NCBI GenBank assembly: GCA_041675505.1
Contig: JBAYTR010000010.1
Coordinates: forward strand, 67,895-131,894
Origin: Bacteroidia bacterium
GTDB taxonomy: Bacteria > Bacteroidota > Bacteroidia > UKL13-3
Direction of reading: 5' to 3'
Length of the DNA stretch: 64,000 bases
The notes under the pieces are model-generated. The model saw nothing but the letters and a program-made list of their open reading frames with translations, was not told the origin of the DNA and did no database searches. Positions within the stretch are counted from its first letter, which is position 1, and the number at the start of each line of letters is the position of its first letter. The position numbers were made by a program, and so were the translations under genes. Of this stretch, positions 14,460-24,627 are shown piece by piece.

Positions 14460-15242
14460 TTATTTCCATTTCAGAAGTGTCTTTTCAAAAAGATAAATGA
14501 TTCTCGAAAACAAAAGAGCCAAAAGAATTATGCAGATTACAGCAGCCAAAACCAACGAAACATCATAAGTTCCACCAGCTTTAAAAACCCTATGTCCCAA
14601 ACCTTCGTGGGCTGAAATAAATTCGGCAATGAAGGCACCAAGTAAAGCAAAACTAATGTTCAGTTTAAGCGAATTAAAAAGCCAAACCAATGAAGAAGGC
14701 ACGATTAGTTTTGAAAATATCTGCGTCCGTGATGCTCCAAAGGAGTGAAACAGTTTTATTTGTTGAACATCAACTTGTCTTGCACCTTCATAGGATTGAG
14801 TGATTGCAATTACTACTGTTGAAAGTGCAGCCATTATAACCTTTGCATACATACCAGTTCCAAACCACATTATCATCATAGGTGCAATGGAAAAAATTGG
14901 AATTGCTCCAATTGCAATGATGTAAGGTCTTGTCAAGTCAGCAACTCGTTTTGAATACCAAAGGGAAAGTCCGATTGCTGCACCGCAAATGTTGCCAATT
15001 AGAAAACCATAAATCGCTTCCTGTCCTGTAATAAAAATGTCCCTTGGTAAAATACCATTGGAGATGTTTTCAATCAGCGAATGAAAAACTTTGGATGGAG
15101 AAGAAAACAAAAAGAGTTTCTTTTCAGTAGTTGAAATTACAAACTGCCATAACAGCAAGAAAACTGTTAATGGCAACAAACCCAAAATGATACTTATGAT
15201 TTTTCTTTTCATTGTTCGTCTTGCTTTGGAAGTGATTGCCAC
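14460..15242 (-). CDS. ABC transporter permease, NitT/TauT (SsuC/TauC-like) family
   Basis: 260 aa, 6 predicted TM helices, EAA-like loop region. Overlaps the upstream ATPase gene by 34 nt. Confidence 0.8.
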   Translation of the reverse strand: MAITSKARRTMKRKIISIILGLLPLTVFLLLWQFVISTTEKKLFLFSSPSKVFHSLIENISNGILPRDIFITGQEAIYGFLIGNICGAAIGLSLWYSKRVADLTRPYIIAIGAIPIFSIAPMMIMWFGTGMYAKVIMAALSTVVIAITQSYEGARQVDVQQIKLFHSFGASRTQIFSKLIVPSSLVWLFNSLKLNISFALLGAFIAEFISAHEGLGHRVFKAGGTYDVSLVLAAVICIILLALLFSRIIYLFEKTLLKWK

Positions 15243-15970
15243 ATTTCAGTAAAGTATTTAGAAAACTTTTGGTCTTGCTTAACTGAAATTGGACTTCTCT
15301 TTTCTACATCAAAAGTTATCTGTAATTCCTTGAATGTTTCGTTTGGCTTGTGATTAAAAATTATTGTCCTATCGCTTACTGTTATTGCTTCATCAATGTC
15401 GTGAGTAATCAGTAAAACAGTTTTGTGATTCTCTTTTGACAAAGCATGTATTTGTGCTTGTAGTTCAAGCCTCGTGTTGTAATCAATTGCTGAAAATGGT
15501 TCGTCCAAAAGCATTATTTCAGAATCTAACATCAGTGTTCTGATAAGAGCAACTTTTTGTCTTTCACCGCCTGAAAGTTGTGAGGGATAACTATGAACCA
15601 AATTTGAGATGCCAAAGCGTTTCAAATACTGCATTACATTTTCTTTTGTTGAGGAATTTATTTTGCCTTGAATTTCAATACCGACAATTATGTTTTGATA
15701 AACTGTTTTCCAAGGGAGCAATAAATCCTTTTGCATCATGTATGCTATTGCAGTTCTCCTGTCTGCAATGTGGTCAAGTTTTACTTCTCCGCTATATTCA
15801 TTGTCAAGTCCGATTATCAAGTTGAAAAGAGTTGTTTTCCCACAACCATTTGGCCCCAAAATGGAAACAAACTCCCCTGAACGAATAGTGAGATTGAGGT
15901 TTTTAAAAACCTCAACGTTACCCGTTGGAGTGCTAAATGACTTGGTTATGTTTTTTAACTCAATGTTCAT
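15209..15970 (-). CDS. ABC transporter ATP-binding protein (NitT/TauT family)
   Basis: Walker A GPNGCGKTT, signature LSGGERQK, Walker B LLDEPFSALD-like. Confidence 0.85.
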   Translation of the reverse strand: MNIELKNITKSFSTPTGNVEVFKNLNLTIRSGEFVSILGPNGCGKTTLFNLIIGLDNEYSGEVKLDHIADRRTAIAYMMQKDLLLPWKTVYQNIIVGIEIQGKINSSTKENVMQYLKRFGISNLVHSYPSQLSGGERQKVALIRTLMLDSEIMLLDEPFSAIDYNTRLELQAQIHALSKENHKTVLLITHDIDEAITVSDRTIIFNHKPNETFKELQITFDVEKRSPISVKQDQKFSKYFTEMWQSLPKQDEQ

Positions 15971-17514
15971 TAGTGCTTGACAATTTCCTTTTGTGCATTT
16001 GTAACTCTTGATTTTGCAAATGTCGCTTTAGAATAAATTTGATTAAATATTTTATAGCAATATGTTTCTTCTTTATCTCTCAAGGAAAATTGAGAATTGT
16101 TTTTTTGAATGTTTTGATATTCTTCTTCACTCAAATTGTTGTTTGCAAATTCATGTAGCAAACCCTTTCCTCTTTCAACGCCTCCAATTCCAGCCCCTTC
16201 CATCAAAGTCATTTTCTCTCTCGAATAAATGTAGTCAGGCAATAAATCTTTAAATGCTTCTCTCAAAACAAACTTTGTTGTTGTATCTCCTGTTTTTGTC
16301 TTTGCCACTTTTAAAGACGGATGAATGCTCAAAGCATATTCAACTAAAGTTCTGTCAAGAAAGGGTTCACGAACTTCAACGGCATATTTCATTCCTGTTT
16401 TGTCAACTCTCAAAAGTTGTGTCCTGTATAAATCGTTTAGAAGATTTTTAATTTCATTTTGAAATTCTGTTTCATCAGGAAGGGAAAGAAAATCACCATA
16501 GCCGCCAAATATTTCATCGCTGCCCTCGCCACACAAAACAATTTTGAAACCTTTGTCGTGTGCTAACTCTGCCAATTTCATTGAAAGTAAAGAGCCACGA
16601 ATAGGATTTGGTTCAAATGTCTCAATGGAATAAATCACATCAGGAACATTTTGAAGCAAATTTTCTTTGCTTGTTTTAATATGATGAAACTTCAAATTCA
16701 AATCATTGCAAAGTCGCTTTGCATAAATCACGTCTTCGCCTGAATCTTCACCGACAATTAAAGCTGTAACATCATTGTGATAACTGCAACACAATAAATG
16801 AACTATTGAACTGTCAATGCCACCACTTAAAAAAGTAGCAATAGGCAAATCTGTTTCAACTCTTTTCTTTACAGCCAATTCAACAAGTTCACGAACATTA
16901 TTTGTAATTGTGCTTACTGAATCAGTATTCCATTTTGTGCTTGGCGTTTTATAATACTGGAAAACTCCTTCATTGGTTATGTAGTGTGCTGGTTTAAGTT
17001 CTTCAAATGTTTCTACTTCCAAATCAGTAAAGGATTTCATTTCAGAAGAAATATAAACTACATTCTCACTCTTGCAGTAGAAGAATGGTTTCACTCCAAA
17101 AAAATCTCTTGCTCCGAAAAACTTATTTTGAACGGAATCATAAATTAGAAATGCAAACATTCCTTCTAACTGCTGCAAGAAATTTATTCCGTGTTCTTCA
17201 TAAAGATGAACCAAAACTTCTGTGTCGCAATCTGAAATAAACTTGTGTCCTTTCATTTGCAATTCTGATTTCAAATTTTTGTAGTTGTAAATCTCACCGT
17301 TAAAAACAACTCCTATTGTTTTGTTCTCATTGAAAAAAGGTTGTGTGCCATTTGGTCTGTCAACTATTTTAAGGCGAACACTTCCTAAGATTGAATTTCC
17401 TATTTGAACTTGTTTAGGTGCAGTATCTCCCCGATGCTCAATTTTTTTGAGCATAAACTCCATTTCTGTTTTGCCTTTTGGAGTAGGATTAATAATTGCT
17501 GCGATACCACACAT
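15970..17514 (-). CDS. asparagine synthase (glutamine-hydrolysing) family amidotransferase
   Basis: MCGIAAI Ntn-Cys, PP-loop SGGIDSS, 514 aa. One-nt overlap with the ABC ATPase start. Confidence 0.8.
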   Translation of the reverse strand: MCGIAAIINPTPKGKTEMEFMLKKIEHRGDTAPKQVQIGNSILGSVRLKIVDRPNGTQPFFNENKTIGVVFNGEIYNYKNLKSELQMKGHKFISDCDTEVLVHLYEEHGINFLQQLEGMFAFLIYDSVQNKFFGARDFFGVKPFFYCKSENVVYISSEMKSFTDLEVETFEELKPAHYITNEGVFQYYKTPSTKWNTDSVSTITNNVRELVELAVKKRVETDLPIATFLSGGIDSSIVHLLCCSYHNDVTALIVGEDSGEDVIYAKRLCNDLNLKFHHIKTSKENLLQNVPDVIYSIETFEPNPIRGSLLSMKLAELAHDKGFKIVLCGEGSDEIFGGYGDFLSLPDETEFQNEIKNLLNDLYRTQLLRVDKTGMKYAVEVREPFLDRTLVEYALSIHPSLKVAKTKTGDTTTKFVLREAFKDLLPDYIYSREKMTLMEGAGIGGVERGKGLLHEFANNNLSEEEYQNIQKNNSQFSLRDKEETYCYKIFNQIYSKATFAKSRVTNAQKEIVKH

Positions 17515-17518
17515 TTTA

Positions 17519-18322
17519 TTATTTTTGTTCTTCTTTATTAAAATTTGAAAACCAAGGTCTGCTTCTTATTCCTTTACGAAAAGAGTAAATCTGTAAACTC
17601 GGAAGGTCGGGGGCAATCAATTCTTTTTCTTCATCCGATGTGTATGTGAGAAAAACATTTTGAAAAAAATTCTTTTCTACATACTGCTTTTCAATTTGAT
17701 TCATTGTAATGTAAGCATATGCCGATTCATCAGTTGAATTAAAACGCAAGTCGCCAAAAATTTGATTGTTTGAATATCTGTAAGAATGTTTACCTGCTGA
17801 TTTTTTTAAAAGTTCAAATGATTCTCTACCTTTTAAAAACTCTGGTATGTTATGACTTCCATTCTCATTTATAATTGCATTGATTAATGCATTCATGTCT
17901 TTTAAGTGATGTGATTTTGCAAAAGGCATTAGCACTTCGGACATGAGAACATGTGTGTAATTGAATTCATTTACAACGTTTCTTATCCCTTTGAAATAGC
18001 TTTTGTAATCTTCGGGCTTATAGCCATTAAGCATTGCATGTGTGTCAGTAAAAATTAATGTTAGCTGAGCATCCAATTTGTAATGCTTTTCAATAACTCG
18101 CAGAAAACCGAAAAGATTTAGCAACGCATCAAAGTCGTATTTGTCGGGGTACTTTTTATCGGATGCGCCCCAATATGAAATGAAACGAATATATTTCTTG
18201 TTATGCTTTACTCTTTCATTAACATACTTATCTAACTCCGCAATTTGTTTCTTGCGAACCTCAATCTTTTTTGCTGCTAAAAAAGAGCCGATTGTTTTTC
18301 CGTTTCGCAAATTGCTATTCAT
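17519..18322 (-). CDS. hypothetical 267-aa protein, enzyme-like, no family recognised
   Basis: AT-rich ORF inside the coupled operon. Motifs ISYWGASDKK and LTLIFTDTHAML loosely resemble the catalytic-core motifs of tRNA-dependent cyclodipeptide synthases, but key CDPS residues do not align, so it is left unassigned. Confidence 0.55.
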   Translation of the reverse strand: MNSNLRNGKTIGSFLAAKKIEVRKKQIAELDKYVNERVKHNKKYIRFISYWGASDKKYPDKYDFDALLNLFGFLRVIEKHYKLDAQLTLIFTDTHAMLNGYKPEDYKSYFKGIRNVVNEFNYTHVLMSEVLMPFAKSHHLKDMNALINAIINENGSHNIPEFLKGRESFELLKKSAGKHSYRYSNNQIFGDLRFNSTDESAYAYITMNQIEKQYVEKNFFQNVFLTYTSDEEKELIAPDLPSLQIYSFRKGIRSRPWFSNFNKEEQK

Positions 18323-20189
18323 TGCGATAAAAATATTTGCTTTCGTGTTTTAGTTTAAACAATTCCCGTGAAGACAAAAAAACAATAACTAAACAAATTA
18401 AGAAACAATAAAAAATATAATTGCCATATTTAATTGTATGTAAAACTTCTTTGTATTCTATAGGGTCGCTATTCGGAACAACTTCTTGCCTTGCAAATTC
18501 ATGTTTCAATTCATCTAATTTTGGAGTTTTAGGATGTAAAATGTGAAACATACTTGATGTAATCTCAAGTAAAATAAATAACGAGCCTATAAAGTAAAGT
18601 AACGTGGGTTTTCTTACATGCTTCCATAATGAACTTTCTATAAACAGTCGAAAGTTTTCAACTTTATTAGTGAACAGTTTTAAGAGATATAAAAAGGGCA
18701 ACAATGGTGTTAAAAATATTCGCCAACCTGCCCACTTTTTTGTGTGTAACGTTTTTCTTTCAAGTTCAAAATAATGCTTTTCATTTTGACGATATTCAGC
18801 TAACAAATCATCAGCTACGAACAAACTGTAATCAATAGTTTGAGGAACAGGTATGCCCTCAGCCCTATATCGCAAAAGCGTTAATTCTTTCAAATCATCT
18901 TTAATCGGATTAGTTTTTGAGTAATACAAATTGCCAATATCTCTCCACTCTCTTAATCTATCTACATAGTATTTAAGAATTTCTTCAAGTGAAAATTTCT
19001 CTTTTTTATTATTGATAAGAAACTGGATATAACTTTTAATAGTTTCATCTGCGATTAAGAGGTTAAGCAATTCGTCTTGGGTATCATCATCATATTTGAG
19101 TTTTGTTTTCAGAAAGTGAATTAAGCCCGTTGTATCGCTTTTCTTTAGATACGAATGAATTCTGTGTAAATTTTTATCAATGCCGTAGAGCAACCCTTTA
19201 AGTTTTTCTGAATTTTCAGGTGCATTATTACCTAAGATGCCCGTAAACATGAAACTTTGATCGTTGTCATACGCTAAGTTTTCTAATTCAATAATTTTTT
19301 TGTTTGCTTCTCCATTATGCTTATCAAGTAAGAAATCAATACTTATAAAATCACATGAGAATGAGACAGAATTATTGCAATAGTCATCGTTATCTACTTC
19401 TTCGTCAATGGTTCCATTATTTTTATATGTTTTTTTACTTACTTTACGAAGTTCATATCCAAAATCTTTTCTTTCTTCTACCAATGTAGATGTAGATGTT
19501 TTGTATTGCTCATAATAGATATGACCAATACAAAATCCTGTTGAAGGAGTATCATAACAGATGATTGATTGAGTAATATTTTCTTTTCCGTATTGAGACG
19601 GAAAATTTTGTGGATTCTTATATAATCTACCTAAGTCATTAGACGAACTAGTTAAATCTCCACTTCCTACAGCCAGAAAAGCAATTTTTGAAACTAATCC
19701 ACCAATAACCTTTGTATTGGTTTTTAATATTTTCTCTTTAAAGAGGTTTACCCCATTCTCTTTAAAGACTAAATTGTTACTATTGTCAACATCTAAACAT
19801 TGTGAAAGATTGAGATTAAACTCTTTATTACAAATATCTTTCTTTGTTTTAATGTCAAGCAAGTCCTGAAACTTTTTAAGTTCTGCTTGTAGCTTGGTGG
19901 CATCGCAATGGTTCAAATAGATAAGATGAGATGGGTCGCAAATGGCTGCGTCTGCTAAACCAAGCAAAACGGAAAAGGTTGCAAATCCATCACCCTTTAA
20001 TTTCTTGCTCTGGTCAAACCTGAAATCATTTTTTGTTCCAATTATAACTACTTCTAATTCCGAAAATGGTGTGTCATGGAAATCATTGCCATAGTATGCA
20101 ACATAAAATGGAAGGTATAATACCGTGTCAGTTGATACGGCAATTTCAAGTTTGTCTTTTGTTCGTATGGAAGAAAATCCTGAATCCAT
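18315..20189 (-). CDS. NMT1/THI5/SsuA-like substrate-binding domain (N-terminal, no signal peptide) fused to a C-terminal region with about 3 TM helices
   Basis: N-terminal ...LYLPFYVAYYGN...GFATFSVLLGLADAAICDPSHL... parallels the ...YLPFYIAQEKGFF...AQFGIGDPVFTAISREKG region of the adjacent canonical SBP. C-terminal hydrophobic segments WAGWRIFLTPLLPFLYLL, LLYFIGSLFILLEI and IFYCFLICLVIVFL. Confidence 0.6.
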   Translation of the reverse strand: MDSGFSSIRTKDKLEIAVSTDTVLYLPFYVAYYGNDFHDTPFSELEVVIIGTKNDFRFDQSKKLKGDGFATFSVLLGLADAAICDPSHLIYLNHCDATKLQAELKKFQDLLDIKTKKDICNKEFNLNLSQCLDVDNSNNLVFKENGVNLFKEKILKTNTKVIGGLVSKIAFLAVGSGDLTSSSNDLGRLYKNPQNFPSQYGKENITQSIICYDTPSTGFCIGHIYYEQYKTSTSTLVEERKDFGYELRKVSKKTYKNNGTIDEEVDNDDYCNNSVSFSCDFISIDFLLDKHNGEANKKIIELENLAYDNDQSFMFTGILGNNAPENSEKLKGLLYGIDKNLHRIHSYLKKSDTTGLIHFLKTKLKYDDDTQDELLNLLIADETIKSYIQFLINNKKEKFSLEEILKYYVDRLREWRDIGNLYYSKTNPIKDDLKELTLLRYRAEGIPVPQTIDYSLFVADDLLAEYRQNEKHYFELERKTLHTKKWAGWRIFLTPLLPFLYLLKLFTNKVENFRLFIESSLWKHVRKPTLLYFIGSLFILLEITSSMFHILHPKTPKLDELKHEFARQEVVPNSDPIEYKEVLHTIKYGNYIFYCFLICLVIVFLSSRELFKLKHESKYFYRNE

Positions 20190-20191
20190 AT

Positions 20192-21205
20192 TTAATTTGT
20201 CTTGGTATCTGAAATAGATTTTTCGGCAAAGGAATTATCTACTGCATCTGATGTTGGTTTCATTTCCTTCATGTCGCCTATATCAACTCTTACTTGTATC
20301 GCTTTCTGCCAAGCTTCATCACTCATTACAGCATGGTCTGGAATTGTTTTATCTGCTACCATTCTTTTTACAGCATTTGCAACAACTGCTTTGTCAAGGT
20401 TGGGGAAAAGTTTTGCTGCAATTTCTGCCGTTCCTGCTTCATCTGTGTGGCAATACTGTAATGCCTTTTCAATTGCGTTTACAAATTTTTGAACAGTTTC
20501 CTTATTGGCGTTTATGTATTCCTCTGTCGTTGTTAAGCCAGTGAAAGCAAATCTTCCATAAAACTGCGGTGAGGAGTAAACAACTTTGTAACCTTTACTT
20601 TCAGCTATTGATGTTCCTGGTTCTAAGTCCATCGCAATATCGGCACTTCCATTTTCAAGTAAAGCCAACTGTGAACCAATTGGGGCTTGAACAATGATTG
20701 TGTTTTTTAATAAATCTCCTCCTTTCATGAGTGTCTTTTTCATCAAAGCGTAATTTGTTGACGGGTCGGGGAATGTTCCAACTTTCAAACCAGCCAAATC
20801 ACCAGGCTGTTCTATGGTTTTGATGTTATCCTTGTTTGTTACACCCCAAATTGTTACTCCGTCAACGATGGAACCAATTACTTTTCCTTTTGCTCCTTTC
20901 TCTCGTGATATGGCAGTGAATACAGGGTCGCCAATTCCAAATTGTGCTTCGCCTTTCAAAACGGTTGCAAAAACCTGGTCGTCATTACCTGAAAACTTTA
21001 CAGTAATTTCAAGTCCTTCGTCTTTGAAAAAACCCTTCTCCTGTGCAATGTAGAAAGGTAGGTAAATTAGATACTTCTCTTGTCCCCACTGCGCTACTAT
21101 TACTTTGGTGACTTCGGTGGTTTTTGGCTTTTCAGTGTTGCATGAATTGCATCCTCCCAAAATGATTGTGAGAACCAGTAATGCTGCTAAAACTATTTTA
21201 TTCAT
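20192..21205 (-). CDS. ABC transporter substrate-binding lipoprotein, NMT1/THI5-like (SsuA/TauA family)
   Basis: Lipobox LTIILGGC followed by an SBP fold with NMT1-like motifs. Confidence 0.8.
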   Translation of the reverse strand: MNKIVLAALLVLTIILGGCNSCNTEKPKTTEVTKVIVAQWGQEKYLIYLPFYIAQEKGFFKDEGLEITVKFSGNDDQVFATVLKGEAQFGIGDPVFTAISREKGAKGKVIGSIVDGVTIWGVTNKDNIKTIEQPGDLAGLKVGTFPDPSTNYALMKKTLMKGGDLLKNTIIVQAPIGSQLALLENGSADIAMDLEPGTSIAESKGYKVVYSSPQFYGRFAFTGLTTTEEYINANKETVQKFVNAIEKALQYCHTDEAGTAEIAAKLFPNLDKAVVANAVKRMVADKTIPDHAVMSDEAWQKAIQVRVDIGDMKEMKPTSDAVDNSFAEKSISDTKTN

Positions 21206-21261: not shown

Positions 21262-22788
21262 TCAACAATTGCTTCCCTTCTCAAAAAGTGTTTTCCAAAG
21301 GAATGTATCAAACAATTGTGCTAAGTTGTAAGTCAAAAACAAAAATAAAGTTCCTCCCAATAGTATTGCCAAAAACCATTTCCAAAGGTTGCTGTAAATT
21401 TTGAGTTTGCCATCAATGAATGCTACATCAGCATTGAATTCTTTATCATTATTAAGGATTCTCTGAATGTCTTCTTTTTCTAAAAGGTCAGTGTAGCGTT
21501 CTTTCAAATTTGTGTAGCTGTCAACGAATCTTTTGCGTTGCTCTTTCACTTCCCACTTTGCTACTAAGTAATAAAGGAATGAGCCGAACAAAAAAACAAT
21601 TGAAAGAACTGCTGTGTCAAGTGTAAACACATTTACAAAATCTCCATTGCCCAAAACTTTTATTGCGATTGCAGAAAAGTAAAAAGTGATTAGCGCCAAA
21701 GAACTTTTTTGAAAACCACTTGCAAATGTTTCAATGACTTTGTTTGCTCTGTTGTTGAAGTCAAGCAACTGGTCAGAAATTTTATTTCTGATTTCAATGT
21801 ATTGCTTGATGTTCTGCTTCTCGTAAACTTTGTAACTTGATTGAATAGATTGAAATGGATGCCCTTTCAATTCTAATTCACCACTATTTTCAAAGTGAAG
21901 TGAAATAATGTTTCTGGCTAAACCAATTTTATCATTGAGGTTTCCGCCACAATAAACCCAATTGTATATATTGAAATATTCTTTCGTTCCATCTATCGGC
22001 AATGCTTTTACATCAACTTTTCCTTTGATTGATTTATAACCGTTGATTTTAAATTCAAGTTCGTTGGCTTTTAGCGAAGTAATGTCAAACAAATAAACAA
22101 CGGAAAGCACAACAGCATAATGATTGAAAAGCAAACACAGCTTGCTGTGTTTTGCATTTTCAATTTGCAACTGAAAATCATCAGGCGTTAAGTTGTGTTC
22201 TTCAATGTTGGTGTAATTACTTGCTGAAAGAATGCTATCAAGGCGTTTATGCCTGTCAGCAAATGTTTGAGTAGGTGTGGTAGCACCTATTTGTGTAAAG
22301 AAAATATTTGCTGTATTGAATGGCTTGTCAAGATTCAACACTTTGAAGTTTACAAAAGGTGTGTTTGATAAAACACGATTGAAAACCGCATACGCTTCTG
22401 CTACTGACAAACTTTCAAGTGTTGCTGTGAAGATTTCTAAATCATATATAGAAATATTGTTTGAAATATTTCCTTTAGTGATTTTGAAGGTTGCTGTGAT
22501 TGGTTCGCCTTCCTGATGCAAATATTCCTTATCAAGTTCAGTTTTGAAATCGGTAAAATTTGAACTGGTTGAATAAAATGATTTTGGGTCGGCTTCTCCA
22601 AATTTGATTGTGAATGTTAATTGGTCGTTAGGCTCTAAAAAGTTGTAGGCGGTTTGAATGCTTGCAACCTCTGTCGATGAAAAGTTTGTTGCTGACAATT
22701 CACAAATAAATTCTTTGTCATTCTCTGAAACAGTTGTTTGAGAATAAGTAGAGAAAAAAGAGTGAATGAATTTATCAGCAAATTGCAT
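21262..22788 (-). CDS. hypothetical membrane-anchored protein: about 350-aa soluble N-terminal domain plus about 3 C-terminal TM helices
   Basis: 508 aa. TM segments LALITFYFSAIAIKVL, AVLSIVFLFGSFLYYLVA and WKWFLAILLGGTLFLFLTY. One-nt overlap with the upstream gene. Confidence 0.5.
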   Translation of the reverse strand: MQFADKFIHSFFSTYSQTTVSENDKEFICELSATNFSSTEVASIQTAYNFLEPNDQLTFTIKFGEADPKSFYSTSSNFTDFKTELDKEYLHQEGEPITATFKITKGNISNNISIYDLEIFTATLESLSVAEAYAVFNRVLSNTPFVNFKVLNLDKPFNTANIFFTQIGATTPTQTFADRHKRLDSILSASNYTNIEEHNLTPDDFQLQIENAKHSKLCLLFNHYAVVLSVVYLFDITSLKANELEFKINGYKSIKGKVDVKALPIDGTKEYFNIYNWVYCGGNLNDKIGLARNIISLHFENSGELELKGHPFQSIQSSYKVYEKQNIKQYIEIRNKISDQLLDFNNRANKVIETFASGFQKSSLALITFYFSAIAIKVLGNGDFVNVFTLDTAVLSIVFLFGSFLYYLVAKWEVKEQRKRFVDSYTNLKERYTDLLEKEDIQRILNNDKEFNADVAFIDGKLKIYSNLWKWFLAILLGGTLFLFLTYNLAQLFDTFLWKTLFEKGSNC

Positions 22789-23825
22789 TAGCTATTGCCG
22801 TTTTGTCTGTTGCTGAAATATTGATAGCCTTGTTCCGATTTGATTTTCACATATCTTGTTCCGTCTGCATCTTTTTCCGCTGTGATTATTGTTTCAAGGT
22901 TCGGAATATCTTCTTTCAAGTGCAAATCAATTTGGCTTGTCAAGGGGATAGTGTTTAGAAATTTTGCCCTAATCTTTGCCTTTACAATCGTGAACTGTTC
23001 GTCAAAAGGTGTTCTTGGTTTTGATGGCAATTGTCGGATTTGAGTTTTGATTTCTGCAACATCAAGGTTGGAATCGAAGGGAGTGTAGTTTCCAATTGCT
23101 GTGTCCAAATACTCTTGCATGTCAAAATTGTCGTTGGCTCTGAAATAGCGAACGGTGCTATTACGCAAATGCAAATAATCTTGTGGGTGTTTCTTTTTCA
23201 GTTTTGTAAATATGCCTTTGTCAATTGCTTCAAAAGCATTTTCTGTATTGTCCTCGTCTGAATAAACTTTGGTGAGTTCTAAAAAATCTTTCCACCAATA
23301 ATGAGAAAGGTTTGGATTGGTGTCATACACCAAAACATTAGTTACAGTTTGGTCGCTGTTTAGCGAACAAACAAATGCTTTGAAAACCTTTTTCTTTAAT
23401 GGAAGTCCTCTTGAAATAGTAAAATTTATTTCGTTTAAGAAATCGCTGTGGTCTGCTTTACAGATTACAAGTTTGTTGACGCTGTTTTCTGTTACCAATG
23501 CTTGAACAACAATTCCCTTTTGAATCTCAACTCCAAGTTTCAACATTTTTGCTTGTGCCTCTTGCTCTTTCTTCAAAAGTCGTGTTACTATTGTTGATGC
23601 AATTGCAGGAAATTCTTCACCTGCAATAATTTTCGTAATCTGTCCTCTTACTTCTGTTGTGTCGCTGTCAAACTTGAAGTTTCTACCACTGCTGCCTGTC
23701 GTAATGAGATTTACCAGTCCTTGCAAGTATGTGTTGAAGTCAGCACCATAAATTGATTGCTCAATTGATTCAACCGCTTGTTCATGAATGTCAACCTTAA
23801 ATATTTGTATGGCTGTTATGTCCAT
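22788..23825 (-). CDS. hypothetical soluble protein, first gene of the AT-rich operon
   Basis: The ORF-track start at 23891 adds 22 residues. The Met at 23825 (MDITAIQIFKV...) has an AT-rich upstream region typical of Bacteroidota starts. Faint resemblance to NA37/YejK-type nucleoid-associated proteins; unverified. Confidence 0.5.
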   Translation of the reverse strand: MDITAIQIFKVDIHEQAVESIEQSIYGADFNTYLQGLVNLITTGSSGRNFKFDSDTTEVRGQITKIIAGEEFPAIASTIVTRLLKKEQEAQAKMLKLGVEIQKGIVVQALVTENSVNKLVICKADHSDFLNEINFTISRGLPLKKKVFKAFVCSLNSDQTVTNVLVYDTNPNLSHYWWKDFLELTKVYSDEDNTENAFEAIDKGIFTKLKKKHPQDYLHLRNSTVRYFRANDNFDMQEYLDTAIGNYTPFDSNLDVAEIKTQIRQLPSKPRTPFDEQFTIVKAKIRAKFLNTIPLTSQIDLHLKEDIPNLETIITAEKDADGTRYVKIKSEQGYQYFSNRQNGNS

Positions 23826-24304
23826 GTTGTATATTTTAAAATGTGAAAAATTGTTGGTTAACGGGTGCTGATAAAGCGTTGGCGATTGCACACTTTTGAT
23901 TTCGCCTTTGGGTTGGCTTGTACGTGAGCTGCAAATGCAAATGTGTACTGGTGTTTTTTGTTTTCCAGCTGAAGCGTTTACAATTCAAGGAGGTGTCGTT
24001 GGTGTCAAGTTTTGTCAAAAAGTTCATTTTTCATCTGTCAGTTTAATGTTAACACTGTTGCCATAGGGTTTCCGGCAGCTTTTTTATATGCGAAGGTTTG
24101 CCTGGTTTTGTAAATATATCAATTTGCTCATAACTCTTCAAAAAGGGGGTTGTTTTTTGAATACTTTGTGATGTAAATCGCTTTGAAAATCTTGGCCAAT
24201 TAGGCCACGGGAATTTGCAAGACAGGTGAACAGGTTAGGTTGCATAGCATATTGGTTTTCAACGGCAAATTAGAAGGTTTTTTATTACTGTGCAAATTTA
24301 TTAT

Positions 24305-24327
24305 TGTGCTCGCATTGGGAGACTGCT
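24305..24327. repeat. direct repeat TTGTGCTCGCATTGGGAGACTGC, 5' end of tandem element copy 1 (about 24305-24410, ends in a T-run)
   Basis: Matches 24514-24536 at 21 of 23 positions. Both units end ...GACGTT(T)CTTTTTTGA about 100 nt later. Confidence 0.5.
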
Positions 24328-24513
24328 TCTCCCGATAGCCATCGGGTCTCGGTGGCATTGCTTTTTGGGGTGCCGCGCTAGGCTCAATAAGACGTTTCTT
24401 TTTTGAAGAGAGATAGACTTTAAGCACATCGTCTTTGCGATGAACTTCTGGGTAGTGTGTTGGGTAGTCAAGAAGCAAACTTTAGTTCAGGGAAGCAACC
24501 TCCTATTACAACT

Positions 24514-24536
24514 TTGTGCTCACATTGGGGGACTGC
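24514..24536. repeat. direct repeat TTGTGCTCACATTGGGGGACTGC, 5' end of tandem element copy 2 (about 24514-24612)
   Basis: See above. Confidence 0.5.
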
Positions 24537-24627
24537 CACGGGCTCTCATCACACAGGCTAAGCTTCGCCCTCGCAGTGACGTTGGTTTTGACAGTGACGT
24601 TCTTTTTTGAGTGCCTTTGAAGTAATG

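Follow-up and report, generated by a model that had tools for sequence, protein, structure and literature searches.

Two adjacent genes in an AT-rich island of a Bacteroidia genome raise the question of whether they belong with the genes that follow them or form a unit with a function of its own. The genes, here called A and B, are located on contig JBAYTR010000010.1 of the assembly GCA_041675505.1, within a window of 64,000 nucleotides (positions 67,895 to 131,894 of the contig), which is the whole stretch of DNA that was analyzed and to which the coordinates below refer. They were described in an initial annotation as a translationally coupled pair of proteins of no recognized family at the head of an island operon. 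We find that the pair is almost certainly an autonomous, mobile module. The reading that we favor, with a probability of roughly 0.55, is that A and B constitute a sensor-effector module of the abortive-infection type that acts against phages or other invaders and is of the nucleoid-protein kind. The features on which the argument is built are as follows.

22788 to 23825, minus strand: gene A, encoding a 345-aa predicted cytoplasmic protein with a divergent YejK/NA37 fold (DNA-clamp), the proposed sensor/activator.
22786 to 22790, minus strand: TAATG junction, read from the sequence, in which the stop codon of A (22788-22790) and the start codon of B (22786-22788) have one base in common.
21262 to 22788, minus strand: gene B, encoding a protein of 508 aa, with the start codon ATG.

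Conserved pairing and co-divergence of A and B

With a profile of B, 51 loci were recovered from species-representative genomes, 50 of which retain DNA upstream of B, and a homolog of A was located directly upstream of B on the same strand in all 50. The pair occurs in at least five phyla (Bacteroidota, Bacillota, Pseudomonadota, Verrucomicrobiota and Desulfobacterota), and the genera that carry it include Paenibacillus, Clostridium and Desulfosporosinus among the Bacillota and Vibrio, Acinetobacter and Thalassolituus among the Pseudomonadota, as well as Arcobacter and Akkermansia. The same gene order was also found in E. coli, in three IMG/VR viral contigs and in further metagenome contigs. 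The one-nucleotide overlap of the open reading frames (ORFs), both on the minus strand, had suggested translational coupling at the outset, and this holds beyond the window: overlaps of 1, 4 or 8 bases are the commonest spacings (30 of 49 pairs, the window counted), and the coupling of A and B is therefore a conserved feature rather than a matter of chance. The identity matrices of the two proteins are correlated (Mantel r = 0.86), with a value as high in none of 999 permutations, and A and B thus co-diverge.

The E. coli pair consists of WP_032082908.1, which is annotated as a “nucleoid-associated protein,” and WP_170228383.1 (strain NCTC86). Their operon spans NZ_CP019778.1 531617-534384. 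The two proteins align with the A and B families with an hhalign probability of 100% and E-values of 1e-46 and 1e-52, and the pair is present in 30 of the 5,426 complete E. coli genomes. No hits were obtained in tblastn searches with A and B of the window against 50,697 phage records, or with the E. coli B protein against plasmids.

Several loci depart from the common two-gene form. A third gene that overlaps the end of B and encodes a canonical NA37 protein (Pfam E-values of 1e-31 to 1e-38) was observed at four loci, two from Paludibacter, one from a Prevotellaceae metagenome-assembled genome (MAG) and one from Akkermansia (L027 9508-10548, L028 9448-10488, L030 9461-10501 and L031 9281-10318), and these loci therefore encode a canonical YejK-fold protein in addition to the divergent one. 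Decaying copies were also seen (L006 5877-8004, L019 6970-9526 and L020 6940-9547): in Dyadobacter luteus, roughly 1.1 kb of inserted DNA interrupts A, and in a Myroides genome as well as a Flavobacteriales MAG A and B are both fragmented into several ORFs. A 4.4-kb contig binned as a Promethearchaeota (Asgard) archaeon (L018, JAFGOA010000168.1) carries an A-B pair with a B protein of 36% identity; its assignment is probably a case of mis-binning, or else of inter-domain transfer.

Independence from the neighboring ABC/AsnB cluster

Downstream of the pair lies the cluster with which the initial annotation had grouped it.

14460 to 21205, minus strand: AT-rich cluster of six genes, encoding an NMT1-type substrate-binding protein (SBP), a 624-aa protein of no known family with a C-terminal transmembrane (TM) segment, a 267-aa protein with a weak DIT1/PvcA match, an AsnB-type amidotransferase, an ATP-binding cassette (ABC) ATPase and a permease.

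By position, the pair does head this island: B and the SBP gene share a strand and are separated by 56 nt, no terminator was predicted between them, and the G+C content is 31-38% across approximately 14 to 24 kb of the window versus 42-49% in the flanks, in agreement with the AT-rich setting first noted. In functional terms the grouping does not stand, since the adjacency is specific to the contig of the window. The SBP, 624-aa, 267-aa and AsnB genes are absent from the surroundings of the pair in all 51 genome loci, and the ABC, AsnB and SBP genes are likewise absent beside the pair in the E. coli locus, the viral contigs and the relatives in which B is 77-78% identical. The sole hits related to the cluster in the 51 loci were two distant ABC-ATPase matches and one homolog of an upstream gene, located several kb away at two loci. 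An all-against-all clustering of the neighboring genes identified only A and B as conserved. The nucleotide similarity to the nearest relatives (blastn; 84% and 79.5% identity) is confined to positions 23827-21283, that is, to the two coding sequences, and in the relatives with 77-78% identical B proteins the neighbors are AAA_21/DUF4435 and NB-ARC NTPase genes in one case and DUF2806 and DUF6602 genes in the other. Since the pair occurs elsewhere without the ABC/AsnB genes, the similarity is limited to A and B, and the two proteins co-diverge, we conclude that they form a discrete two-gene cassette. The check proposed in the initial annotation, whether homologous pairs occur apart from these genes, has a uniform outcome in that the pair stands alone in every other locus examined, which makes A and B a two-gene module, separable from its surroundings and of the sensor-plus-effector type.

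The initial annotation had also regarded the 508-aa protein and the 624-aa SBP-TM protein as two of a kind. They do share a layout with a soluble N-terminal part and a C-terminal TM domain; homology is not supported, as hhalign gave a probability of 0.2% and the two proteins are unrelated. No close relatives of the 624-aa protein, such as would reveal the cluster without the pair, were found in a metagenome scan, and a look-up of the SBP protein for strain variants led back to the contig of the window and to no other. A relaxed Bacteroidetes -7-like motif, TATCTTTA, is located 30 nt upstream of the SBP start codon, so the SBP/ABC/AsnB cluster may have its own promoter. The cluster may represent a separate island for the biosynthesis or transport of a small molecule.

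Gene A encodes a highly divergent YejK-fold protein

The reading frame of gene A is open from a GTG codon at 23891 (367 aa). We place the start at the conserved ATG at 23825 (345 aa) because the family alignments open at its methionine, because the blastn similarity of the nearest relatives begins at 23825-23827, and because a separate gene call on the source contig also gives a protein of 345 aa.

A weak resemblance of this protein to the NA37/YejK family had been noticed from the sequence alone, and it was confirmed here. The Pfam model NA37 (PF04245) matches A with 21.8 bits and an E-value of 1.4e-4, below the gathering cut-off of 24.6 bits, and the match is nearly full-length (residues 46-286 of A versus positions 47-281 of the 325 in the model). 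The E. coli ortholog of A has no Pfam NA37 match. A profile of 47 A-family sequences was aligned by hhalign with a probability of 98.1% (E = 9e-14) to a profile of YejK, four canonical NA37 proteins and DS-1A, the NA37 protein of an E. coli defense system discussed below, and with 97.4% (E = 1e-11) to the four canonical NA37 proteins only; alignment to YejK alone or DS-1A alone was unsuccessful, so that the match was obtained only with a small profile of canonical NA37 proteins. A also has the two domains of the YejK fold. Based on the profile-profile match, A is a highly divergent YejK-fold protein. Sequence searches of the PDB with A and B, as single sequences and as family profiles, returned nothing relevant.

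YejK dimerizes to clamp double-stranded DNA; the protein as a whole is acidic, and its pore is basic, lined by R173/R176/K177 and R276/R280/K284. It is only 11% identical to A (structure 9be2), and the R173/R176/K177 region is deleted or changed in A, while residues equivalent to R276 and R280 are lysine or arginine in the remote alignment. The two also differ in setting: YejK is encoded by a stand-alone chromosomal gene and is abundant, whereas A is encoded in a mobile operon together with a membrane partner. A loop with the pattern GLPxKKKxFKAF is invariant in the A family. Binding of DNA by A is plausible by analogy with the systems compared below.

Gene B encodes a protein of three parts with a C-terminal membrane module

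The protein encoded by gene B, which is 100% identical to the NCBI protein with the locus tag WC150_10305, is divided as follows.

22099 to 22788, minus strand: residues 1-230 of B, an acidic, fast-evolving alpha/beta N-terminal domain, predicted to be cytoplasmic and proposed as the docking site for A.
21709 to 22098, minus strand: residues 231-360 of B, the most conserved part of the family, with the near-invariant motifs NGYKSIKG, GGNLNDKIGLARNIISLHF and YEKQNIKQYIEIRNKISDQ, continuing into a long juxtamembrane helix.
21262 to 21708, minus strand: residues 361-508 of B and the stop codon, comprising a TM1-TM2 hairpin, a charged cytoplasmic helix of about 55 residues, TM3 and a short C-x-C tail.

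The N-terminal domain has an isoelectric point (pI) of 4.8 and is acidic across the family (median pI 4.9). It is the least conserved part, with a mean identity of 21%, as compared to a mean pairwise identity of 45% for residues 231-360, and the invariant columns are clustered between residues 235 and 360. The prediction of about three C-terminal helices was confirmed: Kyte-Doolittle peaks place hydrophobic helices at approximately residues 362-381, 386-410 and 467-493, and a confident AlphaFold2 (AF2) model (predicted local distance difference test, pLDDT, of 85.5) contains helices at residues 311-381, 390-432 and 446-493, the first of which runs as one long helix from the central region into TM1. 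The charged stretch KEQRKRF after TM2 is compatible with an N-in topology, so that the large N-terminal part is predicted to be located in the cytoplasm, in the same compartment as A. Most B proteins of the Bacteroidota terminate in a conserved Cys-x-Cys tail that follows TM3 and is predicted to be periplasmic; the protein in the window ends in ...SNC (21262-21285), with one of the two tail cysteines.

An exhaustive search with the B profile identified 1,068 representatives at 50% identity, of which 692 had E-values of at most 1e-30. Among the 150 best hits, all but a few shorter fragments are full-length proteins, about 480-570 aa in size. The B family is thus large and uniform, and it is without a name or a Pfam model: Pfam searches with 42 B members and an NCBIfam search with B returned only noise, and no Pfam or PDB match was found for the central region, in line with the initial failure to recognize a family for this protein.

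We propose that residues 361-508 are a membrane-disrupting effector module with a SLATT-like topology. In the SLATT effectors with two TM helices, from conflict systems of the CBASS/DRT type (PADLOC RTasSLATT, TIGR04402), the C-terminus is formed by a TM hairpin and, behind it, a charged cytoplasmic helix. B has this arrangement too, and differs from them by a third TM helix and an N-terminal extension of 360 residues. Weak matches to RTasSLATT (E = 0.005) and TIGR04402 (E = 0.04) both fall on the hairpin and the following helix of B. Membership of B in the SLATT group was considered and is not established, since only three of the 42 members match RTasSLATT, and none matches the Pfam SLATT families.

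Similarity to defense systems built on nucleoid-associated proteins

Two recently described systems combine a nucleoid-associated protein (NAP) with a membrane protein. In PANGU, a YejK-like NAP resides on the nucleoid until degradation of the genome by phage nucleases, for example T4 EndoII (denA), sets it free; it then binds a partner effector at an acidic, “DNA-mimicking” domain, and protection depends on such nucleases (bioRxiv 10.64898/2026.04.06.716658). Type II PANGU consists of the NAP Pag2A and its partner Pag2B, in which an acidic domain at the N-terminus is joined to a TM domain at the C-terminus; the system guards E. coli against T4, both genes are needed, and the NAP leaves the nucleoid upon infection (bioRxiv 10.64898/2026.04.06.716658). 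The A-B pair shares with Type II PANGU the bicistronic operon with the gene for the YejK-like NAP first, a partner whose N-terminal domain is acidic, in B moderately so, and predicted to be cytoplasmic and whose TM domain is C-terminal, the horizontal spread between phyla, and, in certain genomes, proximity to Hachiman, Gabija and restriction-modification genes. The survey in which PANGU was delineated applied a threshold of E < 1e-10 with an NdpA hidden Markov model (HMM) (bioRxiv 10.64898/2026.04.06.716658). As A-family proteins match Pfam NA37 with an E-value of 1.4e-4 or not at all, the survey probably missed them. In one group of that study, “Cluster4,” the core NAP is preceded by two conserved hypothetical proteins (bioRxiv 10.64898/2026.04.06.716658), and we infer that it could correspond to the three-gene form of A, B and canonical NA37.

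The second system, DS-1 of E. coli, was found with DefensePredictor and consists of the NA37 protein WP_000355468.1 (DS-1A) and the 404-aa TM protein WP_000150292.1 (DS-1B); its anti-phage activity has been validated experimentally (Science 2026, PMC13092281). The E. coli ortholog of A, WP_032082908.1, is itself listed in the supplementary tables of that study as a “Predicted novel defense gene,” an untested prediction (PMC13092281). In common with A-B, DS-1 has a NAP gene followed by a membrane-protein gene and resides on prophage-like elements, and DS-1B, like B, consists of a soluble N-terminal part, TM1-TM2, a long charged helix and TM3. The systems differ in that DS-1A, a canonical member of NA37 by its Pfam score (E = 1e-23), carries a zinc ribbon at its N-terminus, whereas A scores below the threshold and is without the ribbon. 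B is also about 100 residues longer than DS-1B, from which its conserved central domain is missing. In the best alignment of B with DS-1B, colinearity is limited to the juxtamembrane helix, TM1, TM2 and the helix after TM2, and the hmmsearch score was below zero; homology between the two was examined in three tests, none of which demonstrated it.

Pairs of the DS-1 type were also observed on phage-plasmids, between the holin and antiterminator Q genes (L067 1323-3724 on Klebsiella pBio30, and H13 and H14 on E. coli plasmids). This interval is the classic “moron” position of lambdoid phages. A distant relative on a Methylobacter plasmid adjoins a helicase/AAA ATPase pair.

Genomic contexts of the pair

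The pair is found in mobile and accessory surroundings. In E. coli it is located in an islet between ybaA and ffs, together with recombinase, integrase and insertion sequence (IS) IS3 genes. In the viral contig IMGVR_UViG_2728369616_000001 (L062, 8948-11530) it lies inside a Mu-like prophage, between the transposase region and the head genes, in the order 906-aa protein of no known family and HNH-like protein, pair, head protease, major head and tape-measure genes. Both A and B belong to PHROG families of unknown function. Neighbors at some loci include Hachiman HamB, Gabija GajA, GmrSD, AbiE, restriction-modification methylases, AAA_21/DUF4435 and an NB-ARC NTPase, and at some loci integrases and conjugative-transposon genes of Bacteroides; defense-gene neighbors are present at some loci and absent from many, the window included.

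In the window, the region in front of the pair is as follows.

23826 to 24627, minus strand: non-coding region upstream of A, not shared with the relatives, in which blastn similarity ends at 23825-23827.

The Bacteroidetes motif TAnnTTTG is absent within 280 nt of the start codon of A, and sigma-70-like matches upstream of A are no more frequent than in shuffled sequence. A 23-nt motif, GCAGTCYCCCAATGYGAGCACAA, occurs twice on the minus strand in the 736-nt non-coding stretch 5′ of A (24304-24326 and 24514-24536, 210 nt apart); no such pair of repeats is expected by chance. No tRNA, Rfam element or terminator was found in searches near the pair.

Proposed function of the pair

A defensive function of some kind is probable by analogy with Type II PANGU and DS-1. 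The reading given at the outset, a sensor-effector module of the abortive-infection type, builds on the fold of A, the coupled pairing of A and B across phyla, their co-divergence and the mobility of the cassette alone, along with the accessory, island and prophage contexts, the domain layout of B and its predicted topology. We tentatively suggest the following mechanism, which is modeled on the two known systems and which we hold to be somewhat less likely than not. A would form a dimeric clamp on double-stranded DNA, as YejK does, and would be held on the chromosome in uninfected cells. When an invading phage degrades or remodels the host DNA, A would be freed and could then bind B at its cytoplasmic N-terminal domain, which is acidic and co-evolves rapidly. 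The binding may be relayed through the conserved central domain and the long juxtamembrane helix to the three-helix membrane module, which would oligomerize or open, so that the membrane is compromised and the growth of the infected cell is halted. The steps from DNA binding through release upon genome damage to docking on B, and likewise the membrane damage and the anti-phage phenotype, are transferred to A-B from Type II PANGU and DS-1.

Several observations weigh against this interpretation. A is very divergent, as Pfam NA37 matches only seven of 50 A-family members at E ≤ 0.01, and the basic cluster R173/R176 of the YejK N-terminal domain falls in a 5-residue gap of A in the remote alignment, so that DNA binding by A is not assured. 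The canonical NA37 protein encoded at four loci could mean that A itself is not the nucleoid sensor. The acidity of the N-terminal domain of B is moderate (12% D+E), and the idea of a DNA mimic rests on analogy; the SLATT signal is marginal, with RTasSLATT matches at E ≤ 0.05 confined to the three members mentioned above. The likeness of the pair to Pag2A and Pag2B of Type II PANGU is one of architecture and description, and the comparison of B with DS-1B by hhalign gave probabilities of 0.1-8% and an E-value of 0.004 at best, with a DS-1B profile of four sequences. Finally, no known defense genes, integrase or tRNA are located beside the pair in the window, and many other loci have ordinary housekeeping or metabolic neighbors.

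Alternative explanations

The alternative that holds up best, which we nevertheless consider unlikely, is an addiction module, similar to toxin-antitoxin (TA) systems, or a superinfection-exclusion module of the mobile elements and prophages that carry it, in which A restrains a membrane toxin, B, without sensing genome damage. The tight coupling and co-divergence of the two genes, the carriage in a Mu-like prophage, the nearby integrase, recombinase, IS and conjugative-transposon genes, the decaying copies with both genes hit (L006, L019 and L020) and the helical, pore-like membrane module of B are all in its favor. However, in the two validated systems that combine a NAP and a TM protein neither gene is toxic alone and both are needed, contrary to classical TA logic. 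Moreover, A is a 345-aa protein with a clamp fold, unlike the typical small and labile antitoxins, and no copies of A alone were seen. The explanation also overlaps with the favored sensor-effector reading, since defense carried by a prophage is also exclusion.

Another view starts from the four loci with a canonical NA37 gene directly after B, which suggest that A and a true NAP are not redundant. Here, B would keep A at the inner membrane, where their complex would capture incoming DNA, whether injected or conjugated, or block it, with the canonical NAP sensing the nucleoid in the three-gene variants. The lack of the YejK N-terminal basic cluster in A fits this proposal, as does the finding that the most conserved part of B is the cytoplasmic juxtamembrane domain rather than the membrane module. 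A PANGU-type model explains the architecture more simply, we know of no precedent for such a device, and we regard it as distinctly improbable. In a broader version, A would be a cryptic YejK-fold clamp that forms a membrane-anchored device with B, the juxtamembrane domain of B would be a new signaling or effector domain, and the device would have one of two roles, acting at the membrane on DNA that invades the cell or integrating the signal of a separate canonical NAP, as at the three-gene loci; the pair would then represent a distinct branch of NAP-based immunity that HMM surveys have missed. This version, too, is rather improbable in our estimate.

A housekeeping or structural role is very unlikely. 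As a tether between nucleoid and membrane or a factor in chromosome organization, a YejK-like clamp anchored through B would account for the fold of A, which is that of an abundant nucleoid protein, and for a membrane-anchored B with a cytoplasmic domain that co-evolves with A. It does not account for the patchy, accessory distribution of the pair (30 of 5,426 complete E. coli genomes, scattered species and varying neighborhoods), its prophage and pseudogenized copies, or its G+C content, which is atypical for the host.

That the pair is part of the downstream AT-rich operon, for instance as a regulator or membrane sensor of the transport or biosynthesis cluster, as the common strand, short gap, missing terminator and similarly low G+C content might suggest, is extremely improbable and largely refuted by the comparative context, given that the cluster genes accompany the pair in none of the 51 genome loci nor in E. 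coli, the viral contigs or the closest relatives, that the similarity to relatives stops in the region of the B stop codon, that the cluster may be served by the TATCTTTA motif, and that B is unrelated to the 624-aa protein.

Possible implications for NAP-based immunity

For the annotation of the window, it follows that the pair is to be kept apart from the neighboring ABC/AsnB cluster. The concept of NAP-based immunity was already published in 2026; the A-B family is large and unannotated, and its orthologs in E. coli NCTC86 make the defense hypothesis directly testable. The invariant central domain of B is a candidate for a new module that links a signal in the cytoplasm to an effector in the membrane. 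Should the pair prove defensive, it would add a large and widespread family to the class of immune systems in which nucleoid proteins report damage to the genome, and the class would extend to YejK-fold proteins below the HMM thresholds of surveys, so that present counts are likely to be underestimates.

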